From: Squalus acanthias
Taxonomy: Eukaryota
Direction: 5' to 3'
NCBI GenBank assembly: GCA_030390025.1
Contig: CM059432.1
Coordinates: 67,706,001-67,770,000 of the forward strand
DNA: 64,000 bases
The notes under the pieces are model-generated. The model saw only the letters and a list, made by a program, of their open reading frames with translations. It was not told the DNA's origin and ran no database searches. How positions within the stretch are numbered: the first letter of the stretch is position 1; each line of letters opens with the position of its first letter. Both the position numbers and the translations under genes were made by a program. Below, piece after piece: positions 1 to 34,359 of the stretch.

Positions 1-110
1 GCATCTCACTCTCTAACCAAATGGCACCACAGGTGGCTCAGCTGTACATGGAGGGAGGAGGAAGATCGGGAATGCAATAGTGATAGGGGATTCAATAGTT
101 AGGGGAACAG

Positions 111-1777
111 TGTAAGGGTTTCTGACCCGTGTGGCTCTGTGCTCAGCCTGGGTGCTAGTGCGAGGTTAGGCCTTGTTGCCTGTTCTGGTCTCCAGCCAGT
201 CTGGGAGCACTAGACACCTGTGAGTGGTTCGACCCACTCGCCCTTACGGTTCTGACACTGGACTTAGGTGCGAGAGCAATAATGGAGAGAAAAACTCAGG
301 TAGACCCGGTTGAATGGTGCGAAATGGAAAATCTTTATTGCATATTATTCAAGATTATGAACTACATGTCATAAGCACAGATTAATGACAGTACAATCTT
401 ACACGCAGTTATGTAACTAATTTCAGGGAAACGAGGAACGAACGACACATCGTAAATGGGGGCACACATTACAGTTATCCTTAAAACTTAAACCCTCCCC
501 TATCAATACCTGCTCTAAACTAGATTTGTAGGATCGAGACTCATGCTCACCACTCGTGATAACTCGGAGAATTCCGAAAACTCTGATCGGATGTTTTCCC
601 CGCAGCACCTGATCACCCACGTGTTGATCAGGGGTCTCTGTACCCCACTTGTTTACTCGTTTCTGCTCCGGCTAGCAGGCTGGACCGTCTGCTGTCATGA
701 AGATCTGTGTTGTCCTCGGAGTTCCGACACGACTCGAAAAATAGTCTTCCTGTGCCCTCGCACTGATTCGATAAAACTCAAAGAATAGTCTTCCGATGCC
801 AGTTCTGTAGAACTCAAAGATGGTCTTCCTGGGCAAGGAAAGTGTCTATTCGACCTACAGGCACGGTCGGGGCTTACTGACCGTGGCGATACGTATGGTC
901 GTCTTCTTCTCTTCTCATCTCATCTCATCTCATCTCATCTCATCTCGTCTCGGGCCTTCGGTTCCAACACCGTTTACCGACTTCTCGGGATGGTGTGCCC
1001 GTTTCAAAGCTTCACAGCCCAGTTCCACACAGATCTTCGCGGCAAGCCACGAGGCTGATCCTGGCGGATCGTAAAGTTCAACAGTCTTTAAAAGCTGCAA
1101 GAGACAGAGACACGAGGCAAGCGGCAAGGAGTCGAAAGGATAAGAGAAAAATGGACGGTTGCAGCTTACAGTTATAGTGCGAACACTCTTCTTTTTCCCG
1201 CCCAACCTTAATGTCTTTTCTTTTGTTAGGGTTTTGGCGCTCAAATTTCTTGTATAGGGTGATCTCCGTTTAATGGGTTTCGGGGATACTCGTAACTGTC
1301 TGAGTACCTGTTAATACTTTTCCAATGTGTAACCGGTCGGTATTCTCCCTGAGGGGTTTTGGGGCTTCCAAATGTTTTCTGTAACTACCCGCAAACGGCT
1401 CTCTCATCGTAGAGTCGTGGGGATTTTGCATATTAATGTCTTTGGATGGGTTCTTGATCGCTTGGTACAATAGCCCTTATTCGCACCTGGGAGACCGATT
1501 CCAGTATTTATGTGTATACTGCAAACCCATAATGTCTCGTGTATTATCTCAAATGTGCTGAGTCTTGATCGATCTCGCACAAATGTTTATTGGAACGCCA
1601 TCTTGTCTGCTTATCGAAAAGTCTAGAATGTTCTGCCACGAGGCGTGGCGGCCATTTTTACAGGCTGCTTGTGTCCACTTTGAAAACCTGACAGCATTCT
1701 GCTGAAATAAAACTGTTTGAACGAAACTATGTGTTTTCTCCTTATTTATAAAATCGCGATATATTGCGAATTCTACA
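111..1777 (-). repeat. 3' LTR of provirus (1667 bp)
   Basis: Direct repeat of 11202-12859. Minus strand reads TGTAGAA...CCCTTACA. AATAAA at 339-334 and a (TCTCA)n tract at ~913-946. Confidence 0.95.
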
Positions 1778-1789
1778 GTCCCTCCTGTT
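1778..1789 (-). promoter_or_regulatory. Polypurine tract of provirus
   Basis: Minus strand AACAGGAGGGAC immediately precedes the 3' LTR. Confidence 0.7.
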
Positions 1790-2228
1790 GATGCGAATAA
1801 CTCCGCTTATCGTATCAAAAAATATTGTGGTGAGCAATATTATCTCGATTTCTCCAGATCCAGAAAAATAATCCCCATAACTTAAACTATCTAGGGTCTT
1901 TGCGTCGTCCTTATTTCCCAAAAAATTACATTCTTATAACACCGCAGGCATTATTTGCCTTTAAACTTACACCACTTGTTTTCCTTCCAGGCGTAACCAG
2001 GCCGATGCCTCTCGTATCACCTGTATATTCACATTTTTTATTTAGGGAAAGGAAAAACAAAACAAAACCAAACAATCATATTTAACAACAACACCATCAC
2101 CAAAAATAATCAAAACCAACTCTTAAACATGTCAAGTTCCGAACGTAATTACAGTTTCTGAGAAAATCACGATCGATTACAACACTTCCGAGGTGCACGT
2201 GGCAAACGGGAGTGACGCCATTTTCCGA

Positions 2229-4580
2229 TTACACGGTGCTTTCATCGTGCACGCGCACGTAACGTTCTCGCCACTCTCCCGTGTTTTCGTTCTTGGTGAG
2301 GCGTTTGCCTCTCTTACAATGTACGACCAATAAGTATACCACAATAAACACTTGGCATACAACTAAAATGTGGGAGGCTATTCTAATCCAGGAAGGCACT
2401 TCAATGTTGGTGAACAGATTCCACCACGGTGGAATTACTATGTCCAGAATGTCCGTCCCTATTTCGACAGTTTTCTGCTCTAAAGTGTAAAAATGTTTTT
2501 GTGACACCGCGACGGCTTTTAAAAGCTTGGTGAGGTGTTCAGGGAGAGGGGGAATGAGGTATCCGAAATGCGCGACGAATCGCTGCAGGTCGGTGAAGTT
2601 CTCTTTTACGGTAAGATGAACCGTGGATGGTTCAGGGATTGGGACAATTCGCTGTTGTGCTACTTGAACTTCTGCCCTGGGTTTAAAACAGAAACTGCTG
2701 TCACTCACCGGACACCGGCTACGGTTTCCATGCTGGTAGTGTTGCGCTGCAGTGGTAACACAATATGTTCCACCCCCGATGTATGCAACCTGCGGAGGCA
2801 CATGATCTTGTGCCATTGCCTCCATGGTGCAATTCATGGACTTGGCGCCAGCCGTTCTGAACCCGCACTGTGGTGGTAAAAAGGCATTCACGTGCTGGGG
2901 ACACAGTATTATGTGTGCTCCCCTGCCACGACAACCAGAGAGATCTGTACCTGTCATCGTTTGCTCCCAGCGGATGACGTAAGGTGGAACCGCTGCATAG
3001 CGAATGTGGGCTCCCCCCTGAATGACACCAATGTTCTCTACCCGATACACCGGGGCGGGCTTTGCTGTGTCGCCCAAAACCGTCATACGTAAAACTATAC
3101 CCATAATGGTATGGTTTGATCGTCCGCAGTCCACGGGGACTGGGTATGCTTCTGAAGCTAGCCTGAGCTGGCACGGGCTTAATGCGTTCTGAAAAGGGTG
3201 GAGCGCCCGCAGGTGTTTGTTACTTATCCAGGACGGGACCAAACCTTGTTTTAAATCCTCCAAATTACTGCGGCCCTCGCCCAGTAACCACGCCCCGTAA
3301 AGCATGCACACCTCGTTCTGCGCAGCTTGATCGGATGCATTCCGATCTTCCCTAATCAGGGCATTTACCGTTCTCGCGTGTTTCTCTAGTTCAGCTATTA
3401 TTTCTTTTAAATGGAGAGTCATGGCTTGGTCCTCGTGTAAACCCGACCCAACCACCTTATTTTCATCTGTGAGAATGTCTTTTAATTGCGTTTTTAAGCC
3501 ATTAATCTGGGTCTGCAGCTCCACGCTGTCTAGAGCGTTGACCACAGATGTACCTGTGTTGAAAGCAGTGAACGCGTCGTTCACAACACCCCTTCTTTGC
3601 CTCCCCACCTGATCAAAGACTTCATGTGGTGCGGTGTACAAACTTGTTTTATCAATTTCCGCGAAATCGAATTCGTAAAATTGTCTGAACATCTTGGTCA
3701 ACAGGACCTGATATAACTGTTCCGTCTTTTTGGGGCACCACTCTGGTAACCGCACCTCGGTGAGATTTAAAATCACCGAGGCCACCGCGTAATGTACCCC
3801 CTGAAATAGTATCTGGTCTGTGGGGACCAGTACCAAACCATTCCCGGGTCCCTTACTGGTTTTAGGGCACCCTTCTTCCTTAGCTAGAACCACCGGAATC
3901 GTGGGCGGGGCTTTGCGTGGGCGCGTAATGAGTTCAGTGGCATTTACTGGGATCGGGGAGAATGGGGCCCCGCACCCCCTGGTGCTCGCATCTCACCTCA
4001 TCCCCTGTCCGTTATCCTGCCATTGATTAATGAAAAATATGGAGATGCCTTTGGGGCAAACGTACTTTGACCCCCACATACATACATAAATTCCCTCATC
4101 CGGTTCCCACCATTTGTCCCAACAGACTCTCACTTGTCCGTTTGTCCCCGTAATTGTCCGATGGGTATTATTACCCAGTCGTTCCCACTCGACCGAAGAG
4201 TTCCTCATGTTTTTGCTCAGCTTTCGCAGCCACCACCATCGGCTCAATGGGACATTCCCACTGCAAGTCAAACAAATCCGTTTGCCGACGGTGACGCTGA
4301 TCCTGGGTGCGATGCTCCTTACTTTGGGGCACAGTAAAGAAGTCTCTTGGTAGGCAAACCCCGATGTGCTGGAATACTCCGTTGAGTTCGTTCCCAGCCA
4401 TCCTGGCCACCTTCCCTTGTGGAAATAGGTGGTGGTCTCCTCAGCCTCTCGTCTTCCGGTCCCATCCACCGCGATGGGGGCCGTGTCCCCGGAGCATCCA
4501 AACACCACGACATCCTTGGTGCGGCCTCGATAGGCCAATCCACATCCGATTGCCGCGAGCAATACTAGGATTCGTTCCAT
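2229..4580 (-). CDS. env: Envelope glycoprotein: signal peptide + Ig-like domain + F-like class I fusion protein, with one in-frame TGA at 3993-3995
   Basis: MERILVLLAAIGCGLA signal peptide. ORFs 3993-4796 and 2229-3893 are in the same frame (GMR*DASTRG...). RQRR|GVVNDAFTAF furin site and fusion peptide, heptad repeat, Cys-rich region, C-terminal TM helix and short tail. Confidence 0.88.
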
Positions 4581-4891
4581 CCTTCCTTGGTTCCTGTGAT
4601 CAGATAGAATGAGGTAGCCAGCCTCGCAAGAGTCTCTGGCTTTTGTGAAGGGTGAGCGGGTCCCCTGACCTCGCCTCACGTAAGCTTCAATGTTCGCTGG
4701 ATAAACTTTAACTAAACCTATCTCTAAAACTCCCATCATTTTACTTCTTTCTGTTAAACAAAATTTAACTACCGACTTAAACCGATTTAAAACCAAAACC
4801 TCATAACCTTATCTAAAACTATAAACTTATTCTTAACCTTGAACTATAAACTTATTACTGTACAGCGCCGCCCGTTCCCAGGGCGGCCCCT

Positions 4892-7800
4892 TTAAATTCT
4901 GAAAATGCTTCCGCGAGCTCTTCCCGACGGTGGGAGGGCATTGACCCCTCCCTTTGATCTGCCACAGCCTGTTGCTGCTGCGCTGGGACTGGGCTCTTCC
5001 TGGGCTGCCTTAACATTGAGTCTACGCCTTGGGGCAGTCTGGGGACTTGACCATATCTTCCTGGGCTGGGGTATCCGACCTGACCTACGGAGAGTTACCG
5101 GGGGCAGGAATCCCAGGACCGACGGACCGGGTTCCGAGACTTCCACCGTGGCGACCTGTGGTCCCTCCACAGTTGCTGGCTCCGCCTCCCCTGGCTCCGC
5201 CTCCCTGAACTCGGGACCTGCAGCTTGTGGCACCTTCCTACTCGGCCCAGCAGGCGGCCCTTCACTCGCAGTCCCTACCTCCCCCGAGGGCAGGACGTTC
5301 AAGGCGGGCGGCCCGGGCTCTGAGGCTTCCATCGCCACGCCCTGTAGTCCCACCACAGCGGCTGGCTCCGCCTCCCCTGGCTCCCCCCCCCTGCGTTCGG
5401 GACCTGTAGCTTCGGTTTCCACCCTGTGTGGATCTCTATCTGCAGCCCCTGTCCCCCCTATACCTGAATCGGGGGCGACCCTTTCGTCCTCCGATTCCAG
5501 CTCTTCCTCGTCACTACCTTCACTATCCTCATCTTCGTCGAGCTCCTCGAACTCTCCCTCATCTGACTCCCAACCCCACAAAAATGTCTCACAATTTTCC
5601 AGGATGTCCCCTTCCCTGATGCAAGCTGCTTTGCCTGCCTGTGTGCCCTGTGGCCCTACCTGGGGCTGCGAGTCCCCACTCGCAGGTTTTGCCCCTGTGG
5701 TTGGCCCTTGTGCACCTGGCTTGTACAGTTTGCACTGGTTTACGTGGAACCACTTAGTGCGCCGAGGTACCTTTACGGCGTATACCATGGGACTCGCCTT
5801 ATCTACAATGTTGTAGGGTCCCATATACAGTGGTTCCAGACTCCCTACTCTGGCGTAGTTTCTGACCATGACCTGGTCTCCTACTTCCCACTCCCACGTT
5901 TTGCGGGGTTCCAGCAACAGGCGATTGCCCTGATGCTGCCTTCCCATGTTCCCAGCCGCCTGCTCATAAACCTGCTTCAGGCGCTCCAAGAGGGTCTGGA
6001 CGAACTTGTCCCTGCTTATCTCTTGGAGCTGACCCTCAGTGAGCACCGGCGCTAGCACATGGGTGGGGATTCGCATGATCCTCCCAGTCATCACCTCGTG
6101 CGGGGAATACCCCGTACTTTTTGACTGACTGGCCCGGACCCCCATGAGGACTAGAGGCAGAACCTCCGCCCATTTTTGGGGCGAGTTCATAGTCTCTTTC
6201 CTCAATTTTTCCTTCAGGGTCCGGTTCATGCGTTCAACAATCCCGGATGACTGGGGATTGTGTGCTACGTGCCATTTCCCTTCAATGCCCAAAAGCATGA
6301 GGGTGTTCTGCATCACCTGGCCGGTGAAATGACTCCCTTGGTCTGACTCCACAAAACGGGGAAGTCCCCACCGCGAGAACACTTCCCAGACCAAGATTTT
6401 TGCAGTACCCAGTGCCGTAGCTGTTCGACAGGGGAAGGCTTCCACCCATTTGGAAAACACATCCACCAAGACGAGGCAGTATTTATAGCCTCCCTGGGTG
6501 GTGGGCAGGGGCCCTATATAGTCGATCTGTATCGACTGCCATGGTCCCTCTACCCTTCTTACGTGCCCCATGGGCACTTTCCTTTTCTGGGGGTCTGGGT
6601 TGTTTGCAGCGCACACGAGACAGCTTGCACAGAACTCGCGGACCTGTTCCCTGAGCCCCGGCCACCATCCCGCTTGCTCTACCCGTTGCCAGGTAACCTC
6701 GGGCCCGGGGTGCCCTGCCCCTGGTCCCTCGTGAGCCAACTGGAGGAATTCCCTCCTGTGCTGCTGCGGCACAACCCACTGCTCTTCGCGGAACAGCATG
6801 CCTTCCTTAACTGAGAGGGTTGCCGTACTGTACGGACCCTCTACCTGCTTCCCCTCAGCAAGGGTTTTGAGGACTGCTTTTAGGGCGGGATCCTGGTTCT
6901 GGACGGTCTTAAGGTCTAGGGGCAATGCTACCCTGGTGTTCCCAGGATTCCCGTCCCTGCCTTGGATCGCTGTCATGGGTCTGGGCCCATAGGGGTCCCA
7001 GAAAATGCCGTTGCGGGCACCCCCCCTGGCTAGCGCATCCGCCTGCTGGTTGCCCTCCCCACGGGGCTCTGTGGAGGAGTGAGCCTTCACCTTATGGATG
7101 AAAATCTCCCCTTCCTCCCCTACTGCTGCTAGGATATTTTCCAGCAAGGGCTTCACCGTTAAAGGTCGCCCGTCCGCGGAGGTGTATCCACGGCGGGACC
7201 AAATGGCCAGGTATTCCGTACACGAATTACATGTGAACATACTGCCCGAGCAAATCGTGTATGGGGTTGGGAAAATTTCTGGGTGGGTAACGACGTACAC
7301 CACTGCAGACAGCTCAGCCTGCTGCGCGCTCATAGTGCTAGGGAGCTTGATCGCCAGGGCAAGGTTTGCCGCAGGGTCATAAACTCCGCACCCTGTGAGT
7401 CGTTCGCCAGCAGATACTGTGCTGGAACCATCAACATAAATCTCGCGCCCAGTGGGATGTATCCCGGCCCGCAAGCCTATGTTGACTTCCCACACCCCTT
7501 CCACCGAACACTGGTGGGCTGTACCGGGGTATACCAAATTGGCCGCAAGCCTGGGCTCGCAAAGACCTTCAACTCTAAGATCCATCTGGGAAAGAAGAAG
7601 GGTCCAGCGCGCAATACGCGCGCTGCTTACGGTCCCATCTTTAATCCTCCCATCTAGAAGCATCTTAGTTGGTGTGTGATGGGTGAGGAGAGTGATGGGA
7701 GAGAGCCCTGTGAAGATCGCTGATCTTTTCACAGCCCAATGCGTGGCTAAAAGGTGCCTTTCGCAATTGGAGAAACTTCTCTCCACATCCGTTAACACCC

Positions 7801-9391
7801 TGGACGAATATACAACCGGCCTCAGCTTGCCGTGGCGCTCTTGGAGCAGCACAGCGCTCAAGCTGTCCCCGCTGGCAGCTACCTCCAGGAAAAACTCCTT
7901 CCCCCCATCTATGGCCCCTAAAGCTGGCGCGGTCTGCAGATCCCTTTTTAACTTCTCGAAGGCTGCTTGGCAGCCCTCGTCCCAAGACCACTCCACTCCC
8001 TTATGGAGGAGTCAGAGCAGCGGCGCCGCTGTGGCTGCATAGTCTTCGATAAAATCCCTGCAGTAACCGGTCAGTCCCAAAAAGGACCTCACACCCCTTA
8101 TGGTGTTGGGAATCGGTAACTCTTGCACCGACTCCCTCCTAGCCTTATCTATGGCTCTTTCCCCAGCGCGAATGGTCAGCCCCAGGAATTTTACTTCCTG
8201 CTGACCGATACGTGCTTTCTTAGGGTTTACTTTAAAACCCTTTCTCGCTAGCAGCTCCAATAACTCGGCCAGCAGTGGTCCATGCTCCTCCCTTGAATCC
8301 GTAAATAGGAGCAAATCATCCACGTACTGCACTATCTGATTGGGCTGACTAAACTCTTTTAAACTTCCTGCCATACACTGATGGAAAATACTGGGGCTGT
8401 TGTGGAAACCCTGTGGCAGACAGTTCCATGTGTACTGTTGTCCTTTGAAAGTAAAGGCAAACTTGTACTGGTCCTCTCGCCGCAGCGGGATGGACCAAAA
8501 ACCGTTTGAGATATCCAGCACCGTGAACGTGGTCGCGGACGCTGGGATACTCCCTATTACGTCAGCGACTGCTGCTACCGTGGGCGCACAGGCGAGAATG
8601 TTACTGTTAAGGACTCTGTAGTCCACCGTGGCCCTCCACGAATTATCCGGCTTCCTAACCGGCCATAATGGGGAGTTCACGTGTGTGGCTATCGGCCTCA
8701 ACACGCCCTGCTGCACCAAGGAGGACATTGCTGTCTCCATATCGGGTTCTGCTTCTTTGGGGAAGTTATACTGCTTTTGGGGCCGGGTCATGGGGTCCCC
8801 ATCTACGCTGACCTCAAACCCGGTAACCCTCCCACAATCGTGCTTGTGGGTTGCAAACGCGTGCATATTATCTGACACGTACGTTTGCATGTCCGTTGGG
8901 ACATCCGCGACCATAAGCCCGAGGTCGTAGCCTCCGGATGGCTTCATGGTACACAGGACCCCTGTTTCTTCCTCCCCCGGAATTACCACTACCTCGCCGT
9001 CTCCACCCTTAGCCCCCCAGAGACAGTGATTCCTGAGGTCCACGAGGATCCCGTGCCCTGATAGGAGATCGGACCCGAGGATACCTCTCCCACCCCCCTC
9101 ATGCCATTTCATCAGTATGCACTTCCACGTGATGTGGAGTGCTCCTAAACGAATGGATAGCGGAAGGGAGAACGCGTCAGCCTGTTCTTTTCCCGTGAAC
9201 CCCGCTAATGTGAATGGGACCTTGGTAGATAGCGGTGAGTCAAAAGGGCTATCTGTATGAATCACGGTGCAAGAAGCTCCCGTGTCCAACAAATAACTAC
9301 CCTTCTGTTGCTCTACCTCCATTTCCACCAGGGGTCGCTTCCACGCATCATAGCTGAGCGGACACAGGTAGACGGGCTGCGCGGGCTCTAG
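4892..9391 (-). CDS. pol: Pol polyprotein (protease, RT, tether, RNase HI, integrase, acidic tail) with one in-frame TGA at 8012-8014
   Basis: LLDTGAS protease; LPQG and YVDD RT; degenerate Gypsy-type RNase H (LEVAAS...RPVVYSSR); second RNase H (IYVDGS, AQQAEL, HKVKAH, GNQQADALA); HHCC, D-D-E integrase and GPY motif. ORFs 8012-9328 and 4892-7996 share one frame (APLL*LLHKGVEW). Confidence 0.93.
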
Positions 9392-11197
9392 TCATTGGGT
9401 ACTATTAGATGGGCCTGTGGCACCTGCGGGGCCGGTAGCAACCGCCACTTTTCCATGCGCACTCATGAGGTTACGCATGGCTCCCAACACTGTTTCGATC
9501 GCGTCGGGAGGGATGGGTGCACTAGCTTCCCTATCAGAGACAGGCGCCTGGGCTCGGGCTGCGGGATTTTTATCCCTGGAATCCTTCCAAGGGTTCCTGC
9601 AGTTCTTGTGCCAGTGCCCTGTCTTCCCACACCCGTAACAAGCATTACTGGCCTGCGGCGCGCGGTTACCCTCCTGATGCCACTCCTTTTGAGCCGGGGC
9701 TGCGGGTCGTGCCTCATGCACCTTTCCCTTAAGGGGACGTGCTCCCATACTTCTGGTATTACGGTACCCCACCGTGAGTCGATTTAGGACCGACTCCTCT
9801 GTAGTGGCGGGGTCAGTGGGATCAAACCACGCTTTTGCCTGCTCCCTGACGGCTGGCAAACTGTTGGTTACTATACACCTGAGCCAATGAGTTAAGCCGG
9901 TGTCTGTCACATCGGCGCACTCTGGCGCACCTGGGCAGCTACGCTGGTATACTGGCCACAGCCTGTCGGCGAAAACCTTCGGGGGTTCTCCCTCCATCTG
10001 CACTGTCTGTCCTAGTCTAACAAACGGACCTTCATCGTCCGCTCCCAATACTTCTAGGACCTCATTTCTTAGTGCCCCATAGGTCTTAGTTCCCCTCTTG
10101 CTCTCGTCTGAGAGACACTGAAGGATCGAACTACCCAATGAGAATAACAGCATCTTTGCTGTTTCCCCATCGTCGCAGCCGTTAATGGCTGCGGTTTGCT
10201 CTATTTCCCTAAAATGTACGGAAGGGTCGTCTGACTCGGCCAGCTTCAGTACGTGACTGATCATAATCCTCAGCTGGTGTGAGCTGTGAGGCAACACAAG
10301 CTGGTTGAGGAGATCCCCTTGTTCCCCACCGTCTCTGTTCGGGCCCCTTTTGATGCCCGTGACCGGACACAACGGTCCCGGTTCCACTTCTACCTCGGTG
10401 GGCTCTTTCGTTACTTCCACCACTTTCTCCCTTACCCAGGTTTCCGAATAGCTGGGTGGCGCGGAGGGCATAGTGGCTAATACTTCCTCTGCTTTGTTCG
10501 GTGGGGATTTCTGAAATCCCTCATCCACTAGCGGCTGGTGTGCTGACGGACTGATAAGGCACACCATGCCGTGCGCTTTGTTCACGGCCCTTTTAAGGTG
10601 CTCTATCTCCTTTTGGCAGACGCTGTGATCGGCCCCCTGAAATTTATCCTCGAGGGCCATCTTATATGCCGCCCTAACCCCCGTTAAGCTCTCTTCCTGG
10701 GCTTTTATTTGGGCAGCTTGGCGGGCACATCGTTCCTTTAGTCTGCCCTCACTTAACTTTGCCTCAGTGACCTGGCACTCGAGGTAATCTATTTTTGCTT
10801 TATGGTGGCTGGTGACTACCTGGCGTTCTTGATGCAACGCATTTAAATTCGTAATGAGCAACTGCCCCCCAGTGACCTTCTCGTCCATTTCCACCTCTAA
10901 ACGCCTGATCCGAGCTGCTTGCGCTGTAATGACCTGGTCCGAAATTTGGACTTGTCTTTTATAGCACATCAGCCAGACCGCTTTCTCCACTGTCTTTTTG
11001 TGTTCCTTGCTATCTGTCCACCTCTCGGCTGCCTCTAGTGGACACTTATCCACTAGCAGGTCACTTATCCATTTCTTAGTTAAATTTACTTTTCCGAACA
11101 CATAATCTGCTATTCTCTCTTCCATGACATTTCGCCCAATCATACCAAACTCTAACACATTACCCTCTCGCTGCCAGTGTCCTGCCGCGGTCGCCAT
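9392..11197 (-). CDS. gag: Gag polyprotein (N-terminal coiled coil, PSAPPSY late domain, capsid-like region, one CCHC zinc knuckle)
   Basis: 601-aa ORF directly after the LTR, with CYGCGKTGHWHKNC knuckle, heptad-rich N-terminal third and PSAPPSY. Confidence 0.9.
   Translation of the reverse strand: MATAAGHWQREGNVLEFGMIGRNVMEERIADYVFGKVNLTKKWISDLLVDKCPLEAAERWTDSKEHKKTVEKAVWLMCYKRQVQISDQVITAQAARIRRLEVEMDEKVTGGQLLITNLNALHQERQVVTSHHKAKIDYLECQVTEAKLSEGRLKERCARQAAQIKAQEESLTGVRAAYKMALEDKFQGADHSVCQKEIEHLKRAVNKAHGMVCLISPSAHQPLVDEGFQKSPPNKAEEVLATMPSAPPSYSETWVREKVVEVTKEPTEVEVEPGPLCPVTGIKRGPNRDGGEQGDLLNQLVLPHSSHQLRIMISHVLKLAESDDPSVHFREIEQTAAINGCDDGETAKMLLFSLGSSILQCLSDESKRGTKTYGALRNEVLEVLGADDEGPFVRLGQTVQMEGEPPKVFADRLWPVYQRSCPGAPECADVTDTGLTHWLRCIVTNSLPAVREQAKAWFDPTDPATTEESVLNRLTVGYRNTRSMGARPLKGKVHEARPAAPAQKEWHQEGNRAPQASNACYGCGKTGHWHKNCRNPWKDSRDKNPAARAQAPVSDREASAPIPPDAIETVLGAMRNLMSAHGKVAVATGPAGATGPSNSTQ
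11179..11196 (-). promoter_or_regulatory. Primer binding site, tRNA-Arg(TCG)
   Basis: Minus strand TGGCGACCGCGGCAGGAC, 5 nt after the 5' LTR, is complementary to ...GTCCTGCCGCGGTCG-CCA, the 3' end of vertebrate tRNA-Arg(TCG) as I recall it. Confidence 0.85.
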
Positions 11198-11201
11198 TTT
11201 C

Positions 11202-12859
11202 TGTAAGGGTTTCTGACCTGTGTGGCTCTGTGCTCAGCCTGGGTGCTAGTGCGAGGTTAGGCCTTGTTGCCTGTTCTGGTCTCCAGCCAGTCTGGGAGCA
11301 CTAGACACCTGTGAGTGGTTCGACCCACTCGCCCTTACGGTTCTGACACTGGACTTAGGTGCGAGAGCAATAATGGAGAGAAAAACTCAGGTCGACCCGG
11401 TTGAATGGTGCGAAATGGAAAATCTTTATTGCATATTATTCAAGATTATGAACTACATGTCATAAGCACAGATTAATGACAGTACAATCTTACACGCAGT
11501 TATGTAACTAATTTCAGGGAAACGAGGAACGAACGACACATCGTAAATGGGGGCACACATTACAGTTATCCTTAAAACTTAAACCCTCCCCTATCAATAC
11601 CTGCTCTAAACTAGATTTGTAGGATCGAGACTCATGCTCACCACTCGTGATAACTCGGAGAATTCCGAAAACTCTGATCGGATGTTTTTCCCGCAGCACC
11701 TGATCACCCACGTGTTGATCAGGGGTCTCTGTACCCCACTTGTTTACTCGTTTCTGCTCTGGCTAGCAGGCTGGACCGTCTGCTGTCATGAAGATCTGTG
11801 TTGTCCTCGGAGTTCCGACACGACTCGAAAAATAGTCTTCCTGTGCCCTCGCACTGATTCGATAAAACTCAAAGAATAGTCTTCCGATGCCAGTTCTGTA
11901 GAACTCAAAGATGGTCTTCCTGGGCAAGGAAAGTGTCTATTCGACCTACAGGCACGGTCGGGGCTTACTGACCGTGGCGATACGTATGGTCGTCTTCTTC
12001 TCTTCTCATCTCATCTCATCTCATCTCGTCTCGGGCCTTCGGTTCCAACACCGTTTACCGACTTCTCGGGATGGTGTGCCCGTTTCAAAGCTTCACAGCC
12101 CAGTTCCACACAGATCTTCGCGGCAAGCCACGAGGCTGATCCTGGCGGATCGTAAAGTTCAACAGTCTTTAAAAGCTGCAAGAGACAGAGACACGAGGCA
12201 AGCGGCAAGGAGTCGAAAGGATAAGAGAAAAATGGACGGTTGCAGCTTACAGTTATAGTGCGAACACTCTTCTTTTTCCCGCCCAACCTTAATGTCTTTT
12301 CTTTTGTTAGGGTTTTGGCGCTCAAATTTCTTGTATAGGGTGATCTCCGTTTAATGGGTTTCGGGGATACTCGTAACTGTCTGAGTACCTGTTAATACTT
12401 TTCCAATGTGTAACCGGTCGGTATTCTCCCTGGAGGGGTTTTGGGGCTTCCAAATGTTTTCTGTAACTACCCGCAAACGGCTCTCTCATCGTAGAGTCGT
12501 GGGGATTTTGCATATTAATGTCTTTGGATGGGTTCTTGATCGCTTGGTACAATAGCCCTTATTCGCACCTGGGAGACCAATTCCAGTATTTATGTGTATA
12601 CTGCAAACCCATAATGTCTCGTGTATTATCTCTAATGTGCTGAGTCTTGATCGATCTCGCACAAATGTTTATTGGAACGCCATCTTGTCTGCTTATCGAA
12701 AAGTCTAGAATGTTCTGCCACGAGGCGTGGCGGCCATTTTTACAGGCTGCTTGTGTCCACTTTGAAAACCTGACAGCATTCTGCTGAAATAAAACTGTTT
12801 GAACGAAACTATGTGTTTTCTCCTTATTTATAAAATCGCGATATATTGCGAATTCTTCA
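11202..12859 (-). repeat. 5' LTR of provirus (1658 bp)
   Basis: By eye it differs from the 3' LTR by ~7 substitutions, one 1-bp indel and two fewer TCTCA units. Confidence 0.95.
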
Positions 12860-13639
12860 ACAGAGAGGTGTTTCCACGACTGCAGACGTGAATCCAGGAT
12901 GGTATGTTGCCTCCCTGGTGTCAGGGTTAAGGATGTCACTGAGTGGCTGCAGAATATTCTGAGGGGGGAGGATAAACAGCCAGAGGTCGTGGTCCATATT
13001 GGTATCAACGACAATGGTAGAAAGAGGGATGAGGTCCTGCAGGCAGATTTTAGGGAGCTAGGAAATAAATTAAAAAGCAGGACCTCAAAGGTAGTATTCT
13101 CCAGATTACTCCCAGTGCCACAAGCTAGTGAGTATAGAAATAGGAGGATAGAGCAGATGAATGCGTGGCTGGAGAAATGGTGCAGGAGGGAGGGCATAGA
13201 TCTCTGGGACATTGGATCCAGTTCTGGGGGAGGTGGGACCTGTACAGGCCGGACGGGTTGCACCTCAACAGAGTTGGGACCAATATCCTCGCGGCGAGGT
13301 TTGCTTGTGCTGTTGGGGAGAATTTAAACTAATTTGGCAGGGGGATGGGTACCAGGATGTAGCATTAGAAAGGAGAAACAAGGTGAACAAAAGATTGGGA
13401 GAGACAGACAGCACTAGAGTAAGAAATGGTACTGTATTAGGTGGGGTCAGACTAATAGAGAATACAAGAATGTCTAAGATAGGTTTACAGTGCATGTGTG
13501 TAAACGCACGAAGCGTGGTAAATAAGGTTGATGAGCTGCAGGCACAAATAGCGACATGGGAATATGATGTCGTGGCGATAATGGAGACCTAGCTCAAAAA
13601 CAGGCAGGATTGGGTATTAAATATTACTGAATATAAGCT

Positions 13640-13860
13640 GAGACTGGAAGGAGTGGACCTGGAGGGAGCACAGCGAGAGCGGAGCAGTTAAAAGGAGCAG
13701 TCCCGAGCGGCAGGAGTATGAGACTGGAACGAACGGATCTGGAGGGAGCACAGTGAGAGCGGTGCAGTTAAAAGGAGCAGTTCTGAGCAGCAGGAGCCTG
13801 AGACTGGAAGGAGCGCACCTGGAGGGAGCACAGCGAGAGCGGAGCAGTTAAAAGGAGCGG
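13640..13860 (+). repeat. 80-bp tandem repeat (~2.75 copies) in CR1 5'UTR
   Basis: GAGACTGGAA... units start at 13640, 13720 and 13800. Confidence 0.85.
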
Positions 13861-16800
13861 CAGCAACTCAACAGAGGCAGTTTTTGAAAAGTGACGTCAG
13901 AGTAAAAAAAGTGACGTCAGCACAAGGGAAGGAGCTGATTGGTGAGTAGCTGGTGAGTGTATTTTTTTTTTAAGTTTATAAGTTTATTTCTGCTAAATTA
14001 GTTAATAGCCAATTGAATAGAGGGAAAAAGCTGACTGGTGAGTAGCTGGGGAGTGTTTTTTGTTAAGTTTTAATTTATTTCAGCTGGGTTAGTTCTTAGT
14101 CTATTAAATAGAGGCATGGCAGGGCAGCTCAGTCTCGTGGAGTGCACATCCTGTGCCATGTGGGAAGTCTTGGATGCTTCGCATAGCCTGGACAACCACA
14201 TGTGCAGGAAGTGTCACCAGCTACGGCAGCTCGAACTCCGGGTTTCGGAGCTTGAGCAGTGGCTGGAGTCACTGCGGTGCATCCGCGAGGCTGAGAGTTA
14301 TGTGGATAGCACGTTTCTAGAGGTGGTCACCCCGCAGCTTAAGAATATGCAGGCAGAGACGGAATGGGTGACTGCCAGACAGAAGAGGAGGACCAGGCAG
14401 GTAGTGCAGGAGTCCCCGGAGTGCATCGCACTCTCCAACCAGTATTCTGTTCTGAGTACTGGTGAGGGTGATGGTTCCTCTGGGGAGTGCAGCCAGAGTC
14501 AAGTCCATGGGTGGCTCAGCTGCACAGGGGGGGAGGAAAAAGATTGGAAGAGCAATAGTGGTAGGGGATTCGATAGTTAGGGGAGCAGACAGGCGTTTCT
14601 GCAGCCGCAGATGTGATTCCAGGATGGTAGGTTGCATCCCTGGCGCCAGAGTCAAGGATGTCACTGAGCAGTTGCAGGTAATTCTGAGGGGGGAGGGTGA
14701 ACAGCCAGAGGTCATTGTCCATATCAGTACCAACGACATAGGCAGAAAGAGTGATGAGGTCCTGCAGGCAGAGTTTAGGGAGCTAGGAGAGAGATTAAAA
14801 AGCAGGACCTCAAAGGTAGTAATCTCCAGATTACTCCCGGTGCCACGTACTAGTGAGTACAGGAATAGGAGGATAGAACAGATGAATGCGTGGCTGGAGA
14901 GATGGTGCAGGAGGGAGGGCTTTAGATTCCTGAGGCATTGGGACCGTTTCTGGGGAAGGTGGGACCTGTACAAGCCAGACGGGTTACACCTCAACGGAGC
15001 TGGGACCAATATTCTCGTGGGGAGGTTTGCTAGTGCTGTTGGGGAGGGTTTAAACTAGCTTGGCAGGGGGATGGGCACCAGCATATAGGAGTAGAAAAGA
15101 GGAATAAGGTGCATAAAAGAGTGAGTGTGTTGGATAGTACTAGAGAAGAGAGTACTAAAGGCAGTAGTAGTACCATATTAGATAGGAGCAGACTAAGAAA
15201 GACTACAAAAATTCAAAAATGGGTTTAGAATGCATATACGTAAACGCACAAAGTATGGTGAATAAGGTTGGTGAGCTACAAGCACAATTAGCCATGTGGC
15301 AATATGATGTTGTGGCAATAACGGAAATGTGGCTTAAAAATGGTGAGCACTGGGCACTTAATATTCAAGGGTACAAGGTGTTCAGAAAAGATAGGGAAGG
15401 AAAAAAAGGAGGTGGGGTGGCAGTGCTGATTAAGGAAGACATTGTAATGTTGGAAAGGGAGGATGTTCTTGAGGGGACAAGGACAGAATCCATTTGGTTA
15501 GAGTTGAGGAGCAAAAAGGGTATGATTACGTTATTGAGGGTATTCTCTAGGCCTCCAAATAGTGAGGGGGAGGTAGAGGAGCAAATCTGCAGGGAAATCA
15601 CAGAGATATGCAAGAGCTATAGAGTGGTGATATTGGAGGACTTTAATTACCCAAATTATAATGCAAGGGTAAAGGGAAAGGAGGGGGAGGAATTTTTGAA
15701 ATATGTTCAGGAGAATTTCCTTGACCAATATGTTCTTGGCCCAACTGGGAAGGAGGCATTGCTGGATCTGGTGCTGGGGAATGAGGTGGGCCAGGTTGAC
15801 CAAGTATCTGTGGAACTTCTAAACTGGAATAAGGCTAACTTCAATGGGATGCGAAAGGTTCTAGCCAGGGTAGAATGGAACCAAAGACTGACAGGAAAAA
15901 CTGTAACGGAACAATGGGTGATCTTTAAGGAGGAGATGTTCCAAGTACAGGCTAGGTACATTCCAACAAGAGGGAAGGGTAAGGGAACCTAAGCAAGGGC
16001 TCCTTGGATGACGAGGGAGATAGAGAAGATGATGAAACAAAAAAAGAGTGTGTATGATGCATGTCAGGTGAATTCTTCATGGGAGAACCAGACCAAATAC
16101 AATAAGTTGAGAGGAGATGTGAAGATGAAAATAAGATTGGCAAAGAGAGAATATGAGAGTAGAATGGCGGTTAACATAAAAGGGAACCCAAAAATCTTCT
16201 ACCAGCATATAAACAGCAAGCGGGTGTAAGAGGCGGGGTGGGACCTATTAGAGACAAAGAAGGTGATATATGCTTAGAGGTGCAGGGCAAATCTAGAATA
16301 CTCAAAGATTACTTTGTATCGCTGTTTAGTAAGGAGGTAGATGCTGACAAAATACCGGTAGAAGTGGAAAAAGTAGAAACAATGGAAGGGGTGAAAATTA
16401 ATAGACAGGATGTTCTCGAAAGGCCAGGTATGCTTAGAGTGGACTAGTCGCCTGGTCCAGATGGCTTGCATCCCAGGTTGCTAAGGGAATTGGGGGAGGA
16501 GATAGCGGAAGGGCTTGCCATAATTTTCCAATCTTCCCTAGATACGGGGGAGGTGCCTGAGGATTGGAAAGTGGCAAATGTGACACCATTGTTCAAGAAA
16601 GGGTGTAAGGACAATCCCAGTAACTACAGGCTGGTCAGTTTAACATCAGTGGTGGGTAAAGTTTTAGAAACAATAATCAAGGAAAAAATTAACGGGCACT
16701 TGGAGAGCCAACACGGATTTGTAAAAGGCAGATCGTGTTTCACTAATCAAATTGAATTTTTTGATGAAGTAACAGAGAGGATTGATGAAGGGAATGCAAT

Positions 16801-17962
16801 GGATGTTGTCTACATGGATTTTCAGAAGGCGTTTGACAAAGTACCACATAGAAGGCTTCTTAACAAACTTGAGACTCATGGAATAGATGGGTCAGTGGCA
16901 GCTTGGATAAGGAATTGGCTTAAGGACAGAAAACAGTGAATTGTGGTAAATAGCTGTTTTTCAGACTGGAGGATGGTAGACAGTGGTGTACCCCAAGGGT
17001 CAGTGCTGGGGCCACTGCTTTTTTTGATATATATAAATGACCTGGATATTGGAATACAGAGTAGAATTTCTAAATTTGCTGATGACAACAAACTTGGGGG
17101 TGTGGCAAACAGTGATGATGATATCAATCGACTGCAAAAGGACATGGAAAGGCTAGCAGAATGGAAGTGTGAGGTGATGCATTTTGGCAGAAGGAACAAG
17201 GAGAGGCAATATACACTTAATGGCACAGTTTTAAAGAATGTGCAGGGACAGAGAGACAGAGAGACCTGGGAGTTAATGTGCATAGGTCCCTGAAGGTGGC
17301 AGGACATATTGAGAGAGTGGTTAGCAAAGCATATGGGATCTTGGGCTTCATAAATAGAGGTATTGAGTACAAATGTAGAGAAGTTATGTTGAAACTTTTT
17401 AAAGCGCTGGTTAGGCCACAACTGGAGTATTGCGTCCAGTTCTGGTCACCACACTTTAGGAAGGATGTGAATGCCCTTGAGAGGGTGCAGAGGAGATTTA
17501 CCAGAATGGTTCCGGGGATGGGGGATCTTAGCTACAAGGACAGGTTGGAGAAGCTGGATTTGTTTTCATTAGAGCAAAGGAGGTTGAGGGGTGATTTGAT
17601 AGCGGTGTATAAGATTATGACGGGTTTGGATAGGCTCAACTGGGAAAGGCTGTTCCAACTAGTTGATGGTACAAGGACTAGGGGACACAGATTCAAGGTT
17701 TTGGGCAAGAGATACAGTGGGGATGTGAGGGAAAACCGTTTTACGCAGCGAGTGGTGAGGACCTGGAATTCGCTGCCGTCGGCAGTGGTGGAAGCGGAGA
17801 CACTCAATGTTTTCAAGGGGAGACTGGATAGGCACCTGAGGGAAATAAACTTGCAGGGCTACGGGGATAGAGCGGGGGAATGGGACTGACTGGATTGCTC
17901 TACAGAGAGCCGGCACGGACTCGATGGGCTGAATGGCCTCCTACTCTGCTGTTATGACTCTA
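13640..17962 (+). mobile_element. Near full-length CR1 LINE (5'UTR, zinc-finger/esterase ORF1 14116-15058, APE-RT ORF2 ~15219-17889), with frameshifts and stops
   Basis: CxxC..CxxC plus leucine zipper, GDS and DGLH esterase motifs, APE motifs, SPGPDG, PQGSVLGP, KFADD, RPQLEYC. The (TATGACTC)n tail continues at 18735-18746. Confidence 0.92.
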
Positions 17963-18734
17963 GGGCTGGATTTTCAATGACCCGTGGAGTCGGGTTTGGA
18001 GGCGTGTGGGGGGTTAAAGTTGCAAATTCGGGGGTCCCGACCCCATCCCGACTCCATTCCGCCTCCACGCAATTTTGACAAAATTGGTCGCGGTGTTCCC
18101 GACTCCGTCCGGCCTCCAAGAGGCGGGAGAGGCCATTAAAGCCCTTAACAAGCCCTAAATTGGCTCTGTAATGCCATTTTGAAACGTTTTAGCTAGTTTA
18201 ACCCTTTTCCGACATGAAGTACGCCTGATGTGAAACACGCCAGTGAAACCTGGTGGGAGCACAAGTGGATAGCTGACTATCAGCTGCAGGTCCACTATTA
18301 CAACGGAGATGTGATGAAGATAGTAGTAGTATTGTGATGAAGGTAGTAGTAGTATTAGGTCTGAAAGTCGCCTCTGATGCTGCTGCATTGAATGTCTTCA
18401 GAGACTGCCTGGGAGGAGTTGTTTGCAAAAAAAATTCATTCTCTCTCTCTCTCTCTCTCTCTCTGAGATGCTGCTCATTTTGCATCCAGGTCCTCTCACA
18501 GCAAAGGCCAGGCAATCTCTGAGACCAGGCAGTCTCTGACCTGCAATGATGACATCATCAGAGACGACTTTCAGACTGAAACCACTAATTGGTTCATGGG
18601 TTCCCACATGCTGGAACTAAATTGCCCAATTAAGTGAAAATTGCATCAATCTCCCACATCCAATTGCAGGCAGATGGATAACACGAAATGCGGATGGCAC
18701 GACCACAACCCACCCCAGTATCAAAATCCAGCCC
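17963..18734. mobile_element. Non-autonomous Harbinger-like MITE in CR1 tail
   Basis: TIR GGGCTGGATTTT/AAAATCCAGCCC with TA on both sides. Shares internal sequence with 42216-42566. Confidence 0.8.
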
Positions 18735-20847
18735 TATGACTCTATGTTCAGTTGAGATAGGGAAGGAAAGAAAGGAGATGGGGTGGCAGTATTGATTAAA
18801 GAGAATGTTACAGTGCTGGAGAGAGAGGATGTCCTGGTGGGGTCAAGGACCTCTATTTGGTTAGAGTTAAGAAACAATAGAGATGTCATTACACTACTAG
18901 GTGTATTCTATAGACCACCAACTAATGGGAAGGATATAAAGGAGCAAATTTGCAGGGAAATTAGAGAGTTGCAAGAACTATAGAGTAGTGATAATGGGTG
19001 ACTTCAACTATCCTAATATAGACTGGGATAGTAATAGTGTATAGGGCAGAGAGGGAGAAGAATTTCTGAAGTGTGTTCAGGAGAAGTTTCTTCATCAGTA
19101 TGTTTCCGGCCCAACAAGGAAGGAGGCATTGCTGGATCTGGTTCTGGGGAATGTGGTGGGTCAAGTGGAGCAAGTATTAGTAGGGGAACATTTAGAGAAC
19201 AGTGGTCATAGTATCATAAGGTTGAGATTAGCTATGGAAAAGGACAGGGAGCAATCCAGAGTAAAAAATACTTAATTGGATGAAGGCTAATTTCAGTGAG
19301 TTGAGAATGGATCTGGCCTGGGTAAATTGGACTCAAAGATTGGCAGGCAAATCTGTAATGGAACAATGGGCTGCCTTTAAAGAGGAGATGGTTCGGGTAT
19401 AGTCGAGGTACATTCCCACGAGGTAAAAGGTAGGGCAACCAAAGTCGGAGCTCCCTGGATGTCGAAAGAGATAGAGAGAAAGAGGAAGCAGAAAAAGGGC
19501 GTATGACAGATGTCAGGTTGAGAATACAAGTGGGAATCAGGCTGAATATAGAAAGTTTAGAGGGAAAGTGAAAAAGTAACTAGGAGGGGCAACGAGAGAG
19601 TATGAGAATAGATTGGCAGCTAACATAAAAGGAAATACAAAAGTCTTCTATAGGCATATAAATGGTAAACGGGTAGTAAGAGGAGGGGTGGGGCTAATTA
19701 GGGACCCAAAAAGGAGACCTACGCATGGAGGCAGAGGGCATGGCTGAGGTACTAAATGAGTACTTTGCATCTAAATGAGTCTTCACCAAGGAGGAAAATG
19801 TTGCCAAAGTCATAGTGAAAGAGGAGGTAGTTGAGATACTGGATGAGATAAAAATTCATAAAGAAAAGGTACTAGAAAGGCTGGCTGTACTTACAGTAGA
19901 TAAGTCACCAGGACAGGGTTGGATGCATCCTAGGATACTGAGGGAAGTAAAGGTAGAAATTACGGAGGTACTGGCCATAATCTTCCAATCCTCTTTAGAT
20001 ACGGGGGTGGTGCCAGAGAACTGGAGAATTACAAATGTTACACCCTTGTTCAAAAAAGGGTGTAAAGATAAACCCAGCAACTACAGGCCATTTAGTTTAA
20101 CCTCAGTGATCTTTTAGAAATGATAATCTGGAACAAAGTTAACAGTCACTTGGACAAGTGTGGATTAATTAAGGAAAGCCAGCATGGATTTGTAAAAGGC
20201 AAATCGTATTTAACTAACTTGATTGAGTTTTTTGATGAGGTAACAGAGAGGGTTGATGAGGGCAATGCGGTTGATGTGGAGTACATGGATTTCCAAAAGG
20301 CGTTTGATAAAGTGCCACATAATAGGCTTGCCAGCAAAGTTGAAGTCCATGGAATAAAAGGGACAGTGGCAGCATAACGAACTTGTCTACGTGACAGGAA
20401 ACAGAGAGTAGTAGTGAACGGTTGTTTTTCAGACTGGAGGAAGGTTCACCGTGGTGTTCCCCAGGGGTCAGCACTAGGACCACTACTTTTCTTGATATAT
20501 ATTAATGACTTGGACTTGGGTGTACAGAGCACAATTTCAAAATTTGCAGATGACACAAAACTTGGAAGTATAGTGAACAGTGAGGAGGAGAGTGATAGAC
20601 TTCAAGAAGACATAGACAGGCTGGTGGAATGGGCAGGACACGTGGCAAATGAAATTTAACGCAGAAAAGTGCGAAATGATACATTTTGGTAGGAAGAACG
20701 AGGAGCGGCAATATAAACTAAAGGGTACAATTCTGCAGGGGGTGCATGAACAGAGATGCCTGCGAGTATATGTGCACAAATCGTTGAAGGTGGCAGGGCA
20801 GGCTGAGAAAGCTGTTTCAAAAGCATACGGGATCCTGGGCTTCATCC

Positions 20848-21330
20848 TGGACACTGAGACAACGTATGAACGAGCACCGCGCAACAATCGCCAGGCAGGA
20901 TTGTTACCTCCCAGTCGGGGAACACTTCAGCAGTCAAGGACATTCAGCCTCGGATCTGCGGGTAAGCGTTCTCCAAGGCAACCTTAGAAACACACGACAA
21001 CGCAAAATCATCGAGCAGAAACTGATAGCCAAGTTCCGCACTCATGAAGACGGTCTCAATCGGGATCTTGGGTTTATGTCACGATACATGACGTGATCCG
21101 GACTCGAGTCGTCGTTAGCTTGTTCACAGATGTGATTCCCAGTAAAAAAGTAAAAATTTTCCCAGTAAAAAAGTAAAATTTTTTTTAAAGCTTTTCGTTT
21201 TACATACAGACGGCAGCTTTTGACACGTTGGAACCCCTGCGACTACACCTCATTGTCTCAGTTGTATCTTGCTATGTCTTTTGATGTGGTACCTTCCTGG
21301 CTGACTTAATTAACTTTATCACACCTCGGC
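20848..21330 (+). mobile_element. Penelope-like element 3' fragment (GIY-YIG endonuclease C-terminus) inserted in CR1
   Basis: RMNEHR...VGEHFSSQGHS...EQKLIAKFRTHEDGLNRD motif; CR1 is interrupted at GILGFI|RGIEYK. Confidence 0.8.
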
Positions 21331-22084
21331 AGATATAGAGGCATAGAGTACAAAAGCAAGGAAGTTATGATGAACCTTTATAAAACCCTGGTCTGACTTC
21401 AACTGGAGTTTGTGTCCAATTCTGGGCATCGCAGTTTAGGAAGGATGTGAAGGCCTTAGAGGGGGTGCAGAAAAGATTTACAAGAATTGTTCCAGGGATG
21501 AGAGACTTCAGTTATGTGGATAGACTGGAGAAGCTGGGGTTGTTCTCCTTAGAGTAGAGAAGGTTGAGAGGAGATTTGATAGAGGTGTTCAAAATCATAA
21601 GTGGTCTAGACAGAGTAGATAGAGAGAAACTGTTCCCATTGGCGAAAGGGTCGAGAACCAGAGGACACAGATTTAAGGTGATTGGCAGAAGAACCAAAGG
21701 TGACATGAGGAAAAACTTTTTTACGCAGCGAGTGGTTAGGATCTGGAATGCACTGCCTGAGAGGGTGGTGGTGACAGATTCAATTGTGGCTTTCAAAAGG
21801 GAATTGGATAAGTATCTGAAGGAAGAAAATTTTGCAGAGCTACGGGGGAAGGGCGGGAAAGTGGGACTAGCTGAAGTGCTCTTGCACGGAGAGCCAGCAC
21901 AGACTCAATGGGAAAAGTGGCCTGCTCTGTGCTGTAACCATTGTATGATTCTATGATTCTATGATTTTAAGTGGTGGGGACTGTAGTTGCATCTTCTCAA
22001 TTCTGGTAACATCTTTGTAAATCTTTTCTGCACTTTCTCCAGTGTTTCAATATGCAAGCCAGGGTTGCAATGAGTGAATGACTT

Positions 22085-33989: not shown

Positions 33990-34359
33990 CTCGCTATCTG
34001 CCACACAAAGAAGCATCAGAATATGAATGAAAAACCACAAGGCTGCATGGGCCCCTTAAAGCTCCTGAATGGAAGACATCAGCAGAGGCGAGCAGCAGAC
34101 CCGAACCCACTGATTGGGCCGGGTAACACACACGACGGGCTTAATAAGCCCAGTTAAGGGAAAATAGCTAATTCAGAGCGGCTGAAACCAGCAGCGGTAC
34201 CGGAACCCGGCAACCAGCCAACCCGACTCCAACCCGCCGCCGATGGTAAAATTGCGGCCTGAGACTTTGATGTGTTATGAAATTGTGTGGGCTATACAAT
34301 CATTATGGCAAGTGGTTTGGCATTGCATGACATCCTGGGACAAATTCCGCTATAGTTGC

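Follow-up and report, generated by a model that had tools for sequence, protein, structure and literature searches.

An abundant, young endogenous retrovirus of Squalus acanthias with an F-type envelope and an immunoglobulin-like head: probably an early-branching canonical retrovirus rather than a lokiretrovirus

A provirus on the minus strand of a 64,000-nucleotide stretch of the Squalus acanthias genome (NCBI GenBank assembly GCA_030390025.1, contig CM059432.1, positions 67,706,001 to 67,770,000; this whole stretch is called the window) raises the question to which retroviral lineage it belongs. In an initial annotation, made from the sequence alone, it had been taken for a recently infectious lokiretrovirus or a new sister clade. 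According to the present analysis it is most probably a defective copy of a young and very abundant elasmobranch endogenous retrovirus (ERV), a member of an early-branching group of canonical retroviruses of clade III type with relatives in frogs and coelacanth, and not a lokiretrovirus. The complete order of long terminal repeat (LTR), gag, pol, env and LTR noted earlier was confirmed, together with a primer-binding site, a polypurine tract and a 4-bp target-site duplication (TSD). The immunoglobulin-like head of Env, the UGA-CUAG context of the gag stop and a copy number in the thousands are additions to that annotation.

Reverse transcriptase (RT) sequences were compared in a tree of 54 rows (LG+G4). 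Foamy, gamma, delta, beta, alpha, lenti and epsilon records and snakehead retrovirus (SnRV) served as references, unnamed viral ones being labelled by motif and length; the loki references (n=9) were found by motif match to the alignment of PMC7947760 and expanded by homology. The window copy was placed within the canonical retroviruses (100/100), and the loki rows formed a separate clade (99/99). Forcing it into the loki clade was rejected by the approximately unbiased (AU) test, both alone (p-AU 0.007) and with its group (0.011). The tether tree put it on the non-loki side (94/99) and the tree of RT plus tether on the canonical side (100/100). RT identity was 31-38% to loki, 44% to SnRV and 52-53% to the frog and coelacanth group. 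The loki RT signatures of the PMC7947760 alignment (PLSRWPM or SGWPV; PFGY) were absent from the window RT, which carries LDISNGFWSI and LPQGFHNSP like the SnRV row of that alignment (P0010, L050). In the integrase tree, the window copy adjoined the loki clade (CGIN1-related; 100/98) and stayed outside it. Judged from these sequence comparisons, the element is not a lokiretrovirus, and the earlier assignment was given up.

That it is nonetheless a genuine lokiretrovirus, and the first one from cartilaginous fish, is highly improbable, although several traits point that way. Its Env has a signal peptide, an RXKR-type site (RQRR), a fusion peptide, a transmembrane helix and similarity to Mononegavirales F, all of them used as loki criteria, and the best profile match of this Env was a loki Env (35 bits; hhalign 97%, E 6.7e-11). 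Among the named groups, integrase and tether scored highest with loki; long LTRs, a tether plus RNase H, and an in-frame UGA-CUA stop at the end of gag, seen in two loki loci, are further likenesses (PMC7947760). However, the RT signature was unlike that of every loki row in the part of Dataset S3 of PMC7947760 that was compared, the RT was closer to SnRV and to the frog and coelacanth group, and tether, integrase and concatenated trees all placed the element outside the loki rows. Two loki Envs that were read have no N-terminal head; the element also differs from loki in its single compact protease region, its Gag CCHC knuckle and its Arg primer. The initial annotation had rested on dual RNase H and an F-like Env as loki hallmarks. 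Both are present; neither is specific. The Envs of foamy virus (PMC11468914), walleye dermal sarcoma virus (WDSV) and SnRV share the fold or the profile, so an F-like Env is not diagnostic of loki; nor is dual RNase H, which is common to all retroviruses and Odin. In lokiretroviruses, RNase H groups with that of foamy viruses; for the RNase H of the element, pairwise scores were low and similar.

Further loki features were sought. For the optional smc gene, no separate open reading frame (ORF) of at least 100 codons that might encode it was present in the element. From the closest Pol sequences (frog, coelacanth and unnamed), six peptides were compared with the loki supplement text (300 of 318 pages) and had no match, although line breaks could hide one; to that extent, these sequences do not figure among its RT rows. 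The loki RT motif, searched as an exact degenerate pattern, gave no match in the element's own genome or in the viral contigs, which does not in itself show absence. The loki screen took in six chondrichthyan genomes, none of them with loki (PMC7947760, supplement Fig. S1), so that the initial annotation was correct in stating that the original host list lacks chondrichthyans; this gap no longer bears on the element. In teleost-type lokiretroviruses (L070:6316-6324; L071:1730-1740) gag and pol were found in frame across the UGA-CUA stop; no mention of readthrough was seen in the parts of PMC7947760 that were consulted.

Within the canonical retroviruses, the six foamy references of the RT tree formed a 100/100 clade and the orthoretroviruses a 95/90 clade, both without the window copy, which stood in a nine-row group with frog and coelacanth ERVs (98/88). 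The RT did not fall in Gypsy and Pol is not of the single-RNase-H kind, both of which argue against Metaviridae. Nesting of the RT in Orthoretrovirinae, Spumaretrovirinae or Gypsy, named beforehand as an outcome that would overturn the initial annotation, was not observed in this tree. A second RT alignment put the group outside all other canonical retroviruses (76/96). In concatenated trees of RT, tether and integrase, all other retroviruses were separated from the window group under LG+G4 with 39 rows (100/99) and under a mixture model with 28 rows (93/99), for which 11 rows had been dropped as longest branches, including all class II and delta rows. By partition, the same split received 66/73 from RT plus tether and 96/95 from integrase, and the integrase tree rooted on Gypsy gave the order loki, then the window group, then the rest. 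A basal position among canonical retroviruses is likely, and the loki-like traits of the element are most readily understood as ancestral features that it has kept. The idea of a new sister clade was thus supported in part: the element lies outside loki, Spumaretrovirinae, Orthoretrovirinae and Gypsy, and concatenated trees place it between loki and the other sampled retroviruses.

Several observations count against such a placement. The RT tree paired the group weakly with SnRV (87/48), and the AU test rejected the snakehead link in no partition (p 0.41, 0.22, 0.11). Integrase put the window copy on the loki plus Gypsy side (89/100), and integrase and tether scored higher against loki than against snakehead, foamy or gamma (integrase ~250 bits against loki, 129 against SnRV). 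In the careful concatenated trees the group was a grade and not a supported clade, with long branches flagged, and the trees were computed without ERV-L, ERV4, fish foamy-like ERVs and Odin; an ERV-L motif scan returned three loci, none with an RT or integrase match.

An ordinary snakehead-related member of clade III (Huo), its basal placement being due to slow evolution or to an integrase of separate origin, is a real possibility at somewhat under even chance. Besides the RT pairing and the AU results, both the element and SnRV have an Arg tRNA primer and an in-frame gag stop with readthrough, which for the element is probable, and the SnRV Env aligned to the family profile with shared cysteines (hhalign 92.6%). 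Both also have one CCHC knuckle. Cartilaginous fish are already known to carry ERVs of clade III and of snakehead-like type, CmiERV lineage I among them (PMC4422223; PMC6001957; PMC11089739): elephant shark has snakehead-like ERVs (PMC4422223), most chondrichthyan ERV RTs belong to clade III (PMC11089739), and retroviral integrase swaps have been reported (PMC7947760). On the other hand, the best RT, RT plus tether and integrase trees joined SnRV to the remaining retroviruses and kept it apart from the group, and both concatenates, including the mixture tree without the longest branches, did the same. The element further differs from SnRV in its gag stop (UGA-CUAG versus UAG-G), in its integrase, in a 220-residue immunoglobulin (Ig) head where the N-terminal region of SnRV Env has ~420 residues, in lacking an accessory ORF of at least 100 codons between env and the 3' LTR, and in its LTRs of 1.66 kb. 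A snakehead-related origin would alter nothing but the position in the tree, and most of the explanation given here would stand. Within the canonical retroviruses, a basal and a snakehead-linked placement are both plausible.

A recombinant of a loki-like backbone (gag stop, integrase, env) with a canonical RT and tether is rather improbable. The integrase grouping with loki and Gypsy beside a canonical RT and tether would fit it, as would the loki Env as best match. But the Gypsy-rooted integrase tree and the RT tree agree in their branching order, so that no conflict calls for recombination; the integrase lies outside the loki clade, and the WDSV Env scored nearly as high as the loki Env (32 versus 35 bits).

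The Env protein consists, in order, of a signal peptide, an Ig-fold head, a paramyxovirus-F-fold core with heptad helices and a transmembrane helix. Its model, built from 44 homologs (mean predicted local distance difference test score, pLDDT, 61), matched paramyxovirus and pneumovirus F, among them F of human parainfluenza virus 3 (E 8.4e-12), which confirmed the F-like Env of the initial annotation. Residues 245-691 were superposed on Langya F (Z 12.5, rmsd 5.7 A, 332 aligned), and the F-type fold covers residues 245-711. The model also matched predicted glycoproteins of lispivirus, baculovirus, WEHV1, WDSV and feline foamy virus. The N-terminal part modelled alone matched Ig V- and I-set domains (NCAM2 Ig: VIA Z 10.0, rmsd 2.0 A, 88 aligned; Foldseek V domains: E 2e-5), with a low model confidence (mean pLDDT 47.7) that weighs against the Ig assignment. 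It carries a Cys-Trp-'D-x-G-x-Y-x-C' pattern, which is an Ig hallmark, and database names and weak Pfam matches of distant Env homologs agree with an Ig head. The env frame was uninterrupted across the break point of the window copy in all ten other copies examined, in skate and in other homologs; env is therefore one gene in the family. Two separate ORFs, one for an Ig protein and one for an F protein, were considered and ruled out by the same intact frame.

Env was not recognised in Pfam or in single-sequence PDB searches, which gave weak Ig matches only, and had no match in the phage collection. The CX6CC motif of gamma- and beta-type (class Ia) Envs was sought in the Env sequence and was absent. 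With the Env family profile, searched without speed filters against virus loci in which gamma and foamy env are partial, WDSV (32 bits, E 2e-9) and SnRV (21 bits) were detected besides loki. Against PDB, searched with speed filters, the best match was foamy Env (18 bits, E 0.006), and no paramyxovirus or pneumovirus F stood among 20 matches to E 10; errantivirus and lispivirus F sequences were not among the targets of the profile. Detection of loki and canonical Envs, but of no paramyxovirus F in PDB, argues against independent acquisition of Env and suggests that a single envelope passed by common descent to lokiretroviruses as well as to ordinary retroviruses. Wang and Han 2022 (PMC9040795) favour separate origins for the loki and the canonical retroviruses, on the ground that no similarity is detectable between their Envs. 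An F-like fold is already known for foamy Env, surveys of Env in anamniotes were aimed at gamma-type Env or reported it (10.1101/2021.11.23.469661; PMC12690878), and a survey of errantiviruses leaves vertebrate ERVs to later work (10.1101/2023.10.26.564294).

Taken jointly, these results allow a tentative reading, held at slightly less than an even chance. The element and its frog and coelacanth relatives would be the earliest-branching canonical lineage, after loki and Odin and before snakehead, foamy and orthoretroviruses, and would have kept an ancestral kit of retrotransposon-like capsid, loki-like integrase, UGA-CUAG readthrough and class Ib F-type Env. There would have been a single ancestral F-type Env, older than the split between loki and canonical retroviruses, with gamma- and beta-type Envs as later replacements. 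The Ig fold would be a host-derived receptor-binding module added to a minimal F scaffold; as an N-terminal domain it may represent a third solution for attaching a binding module to that scaffold. Single versus independent origin of retroviral Env could then be tested by Env phylogeny.

Among 51 matches to Env, the names of 20 were looked up. Homologs at 66-77% identity came from Rhinoraja, Pristiophorus and Scyliorhinus (skate, sawshark and catshark), and more distant ones from Mustelus, Chiloscyllium, Heptranchias, Heterodontus and frogs. These Env homologs make an elasmobranch host probable, in keeping with the cartilaginous-fish genome presumed in the initial annotation. The element resembles the Ig-headed Envs of sharks and frogs (P0064, P0065, P0072, P0099; Env core 19-32%) and, in Pol, frog and coelacanth elements annotated as 'NYNRIN-like' (P0003-P0008; RT 52-53%, integrase 41-43%); these Pol and Env proteins were compared separately. 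No link of the 'NYNRIN-like' elements to a described family was found in the literature. Nor was a description of the present family or of an Ig-headed F-type retroviral Env found there; Repbase, subscription papers or bioRxiv supplements could hold one. Bamboo shark, parsley frog and Mantella have annotated Ig-headed F-type Envs that are open over their full length (16 cluster members; P0065, P0072, P0088/P0117, P0099), and the single-copy proteins of these animals could be domesticated fusogens. The WDSV-type Env (L075) matched the F-type profile and fold, and in walleye viruses the epsilonretrovirus Env thus seems to belong to class Ib and not to the gamma type.

Spumaretrovirinae have a Gag without Cys-His box, express Pol apart from Gag and carry 3' accessory genes. 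Unlike foamy viruses, the element has a Gag zinc knuckle, a pol in frame with gag and no 3' ORF, and its Env has an N-terminal signal peptide and Ig head in place of a leader peptide and an inserted receptor-binding domain; it also stands outside the foamy clade. Common to both are the RT, for which the best PDB match was foamy virus 7kse (E 9e-51), and the class Ib F-like Env core (foamy Env structure 8RM1; PMC11468914).

Three in-frame stops are present in the element: at the end of gag, at 8012-8014 in the RT thumb, and at 3993-3995 in env. The initial annotation had counted about three codons to be repaired; the stops exist, and two of them are damage. The gag stop was kept in 10/10 other copies, always as CAA-UGA-CUAG, and is therefore natural; a 20-mer spanning it had 1,115 exact genomic matches (reversed control: 0). 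The stops in RT and env occurred in none of these ten copies and are private to the window copy, in which both pol and env are accordingly defective. Readthrough is documented for the context UGA-CUA(G) (PMC13517186), and Gag-Pol is probably made by readthrough of the gag stop, as the sequence context suggests. Against this, a stable RNA structure was sought downstream of the stop and none was found (z -0.68). The N-terminus of the protease lies upstream of the first ATG of pol, and the first ATG of gag overlaps the primer-binding site.

Pol contains a Ty3-RH-like tether (PF17919/PF17917), RNase H (PF00075), HHCC and rve domains according to Pfam, which bore out the tether plus RNase HI reported earlier. 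The C-terminus of the integrase is SH3-like with a GPY motif; the motif had been correctly noted, but is no specific mark of Gypsy (PMC12440569); it is found also in snakehead retrovirus. Gag had no match in Pfam; its ESM Atlas features were nearest to retrotransposon Gag, Ty3 capsid and zinc knuckle (score 0.92), which is taken as a lead only. Behind the integrase, Pol has a tail (4895-5722) with an acidic run, two 129-bp repeats of 78% identity (5098-5226 and 5284-5412) and a basic LRRSGR motif, similar to RRRSPR at the SnRV Pol terminus; a role in chromatin binding may be guessed at.

A genome-wide copy search, as proposed in the initial annotation, revealed thousands of copies. In the 3.7-Gb genome, 40 of 3,515 candidate pol matches were scored, and all were 98-100% identical. 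Exact matches numbered 3,488 for an env 20-mer and 2,593 for a primer-site 21-mer (reversed controls: 0), counts that may take in close subfamilies. Within the first 115 Mb of contig C1, 68 primer-site matches were found: 40 had an env match at full spacing, 15 had env ~3.4 kb nearer, two had another spacing and 11 lacked env. Copies without the ~3.4 kb of interior must have been copied in trans; the shortened form keeping primer site and env is probably a non-autonomous gag-env derivative.

Ten of the 39 other listed copies, those nearest to the window copy by pol, were examined in full. The distance between the LTRs was 0.0018-0.0067 in nine of them (one partial), and one copy lacked the 5' LTR. 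The TSDs were 4 bp long: five perfect, two with one mismatch and three unresolved. The two LTRs of the window copy differ at nine sites, as counted before (four transitions, three transversions and two indels; Kimura two-parameter distance 0.0042). This corresponds to ~1 My at 2.2e-9 per year, the rate used in PMC7947760, and to ~9.6 My at 2.2e-10, the shark rate assumed in PMC4422223; recent infectivity is thus plausible, and at shark rates "recent" may mean ~10 My. The ratio pN/pS was determined against the window copy for nine copies, one segmental duplicate being excluded: 0.10 for the F part of env, 0.16 for its Ig part, 0.24 for gag, 0.22 for protease-RT, 0.23 for tether-RNase H and 0.30 for integrase. 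Env is under purifying selection, the strongest of all genes, which points to spread by reinfection; as a reservation, all values share the window copy, are hence non-independent, and concern the nearest copies only.

Spread inside germ cells by retrotransposition or complementation, with env as a passenger, appears unlikely. It would agree with the very high copy number and with the 15 of 68 sampled copies that must have been copied in trans. The selection on env speaks against it, as do env matches outnumbering those of the primer site and the gag stop, and the retention of env in the shortened copies. The preferred explanation can be put as follows. A transcript starting in the LTR would be primed by tRNA-Arg(TCG), and a few per cent of ribosomes would read through UGA-CUAG to make Gag-Pol. 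Env would probably come from a spliced mRNA, for which a candidate splice donor is present in the LTR, and would be cut by furin at RQRR. The Ig-fold head would bind a host receptor, and the F-type core would refold and fuse the membranes (class Ib fusion); integrase would leave 4-bp TSDs. The family may have multiplied largely by Env-dependent reinfection of the germline, with pol-deleted copies keeping gag and env carried along in trans. An elasmobranch genome would then have undergone a recent ERV burst of very large size that depended on Env.

Sequencing runs from five organisms contained 25-37% of the element's words. Contigs of four runs covered 30/30 bins of the element, mostly at identities of at least 90%, so close relatives occur in other samples; no splice joint was found in these contigs, which cannot show transcription. 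In one copy (L021, 2265-3979) env is interrupted by a related LTR, ~79-86% identical to the window LTR, which indicates a second LTR subfamily active later than that copy. Two copies on contig C1, ~39 kb apart (L015-L018), share flanks, TSD and a 0.8-kb deletion between the end of pol and the start of env, and thus represent a segmental duplication and not two insertions.

The features of the provirus are compiled in the table. In the 5' LTR, a candidate TATA lies at LTR position 603 and a candidate AATAAA at 1430. A (TCTCA)n microsatellite within the LTRs (925-950 and 12005-12025) explains the 10-bp indel between them.

Features of the provirus (positions in the window)
Feature	Position	Strand	Basis or remark
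Left target-site duplication, ACAG	107..110	.	sequence comparison
3' LTR, 1667 bp	111..1777	-	TG...CA ends
Polypurine tract	1779..1789	-	purine run just before 3' LTR; putative function
env, 783 codons	2229..4580	-	broken here by stop 3993-3995
Env transmembrane helix	~2316-2393	-
Env predicted furin site RQRR, followed by fusion-peptide-like segment	3591-3602	-
Ig-fold head of Env, best-predicted part residues ~90-190	3996..4535	-	structure model
pol: protease, RT (YVDD), tether, RNase H, integrase, acidic repeat-bearing tail	4892..9391	-
Pol integrase	~5723-6772	-	Pfam domain search
Pol RNase H	~7016-7444	-	Pfam domain search
Pol tether	~7560-8011	-	Pfam domain search
gag stop in UGA-CUAG context, in frame with pol	9388..9394	-	probable readthrough site
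gag, 601 codons: coiled-coil-like N-terminus, capsid, one CCHC knuckle	9392..11197	-
Primer-binding site, 18 nt, tRNA-Arg(TCG), 5 nt past 5' LTR	11179..11196	-
5' LTR, 1658 bp	11202..12859	-	TG...CA ends
Right target-site duplication, ACAG	12860..12863	.	sequence comparison

The complement of the primer-binding site matched host tRNA-Arg(TCG) genes. These form large tandem arrays with 1,623-bp spacing (G000:C26, 39-42 Mb), an abundant primer supply for the element; the tRNA-Arg(TCG) pattern had 433 matches genome-wide, and tRNA-Ser(GCT) stood beside the arrays in two loci that were read.

The insertion target was the esterase ORF (Pfam Lipase_GDSL_2) of a long interspersed nuclear element (LINE), presumably of CR1 type, of which an uninterrupted copy lies at 14505-14650. 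Stacked LINE fragments with esterase ORF1 and RT fill 12860-22000 and beyond, and an 80-bp tandem repeat is located at 13639-13878. Farther along the window, a Gypsy-type element (34561-38538), in which gag and pol form a single open frame of 1,325 codons, adjoins or sits within a PIF/Harbinger-like transposon (DDE_Tnp_4 at 30587-31654, Myb/SANT ORF at 33513-34055).

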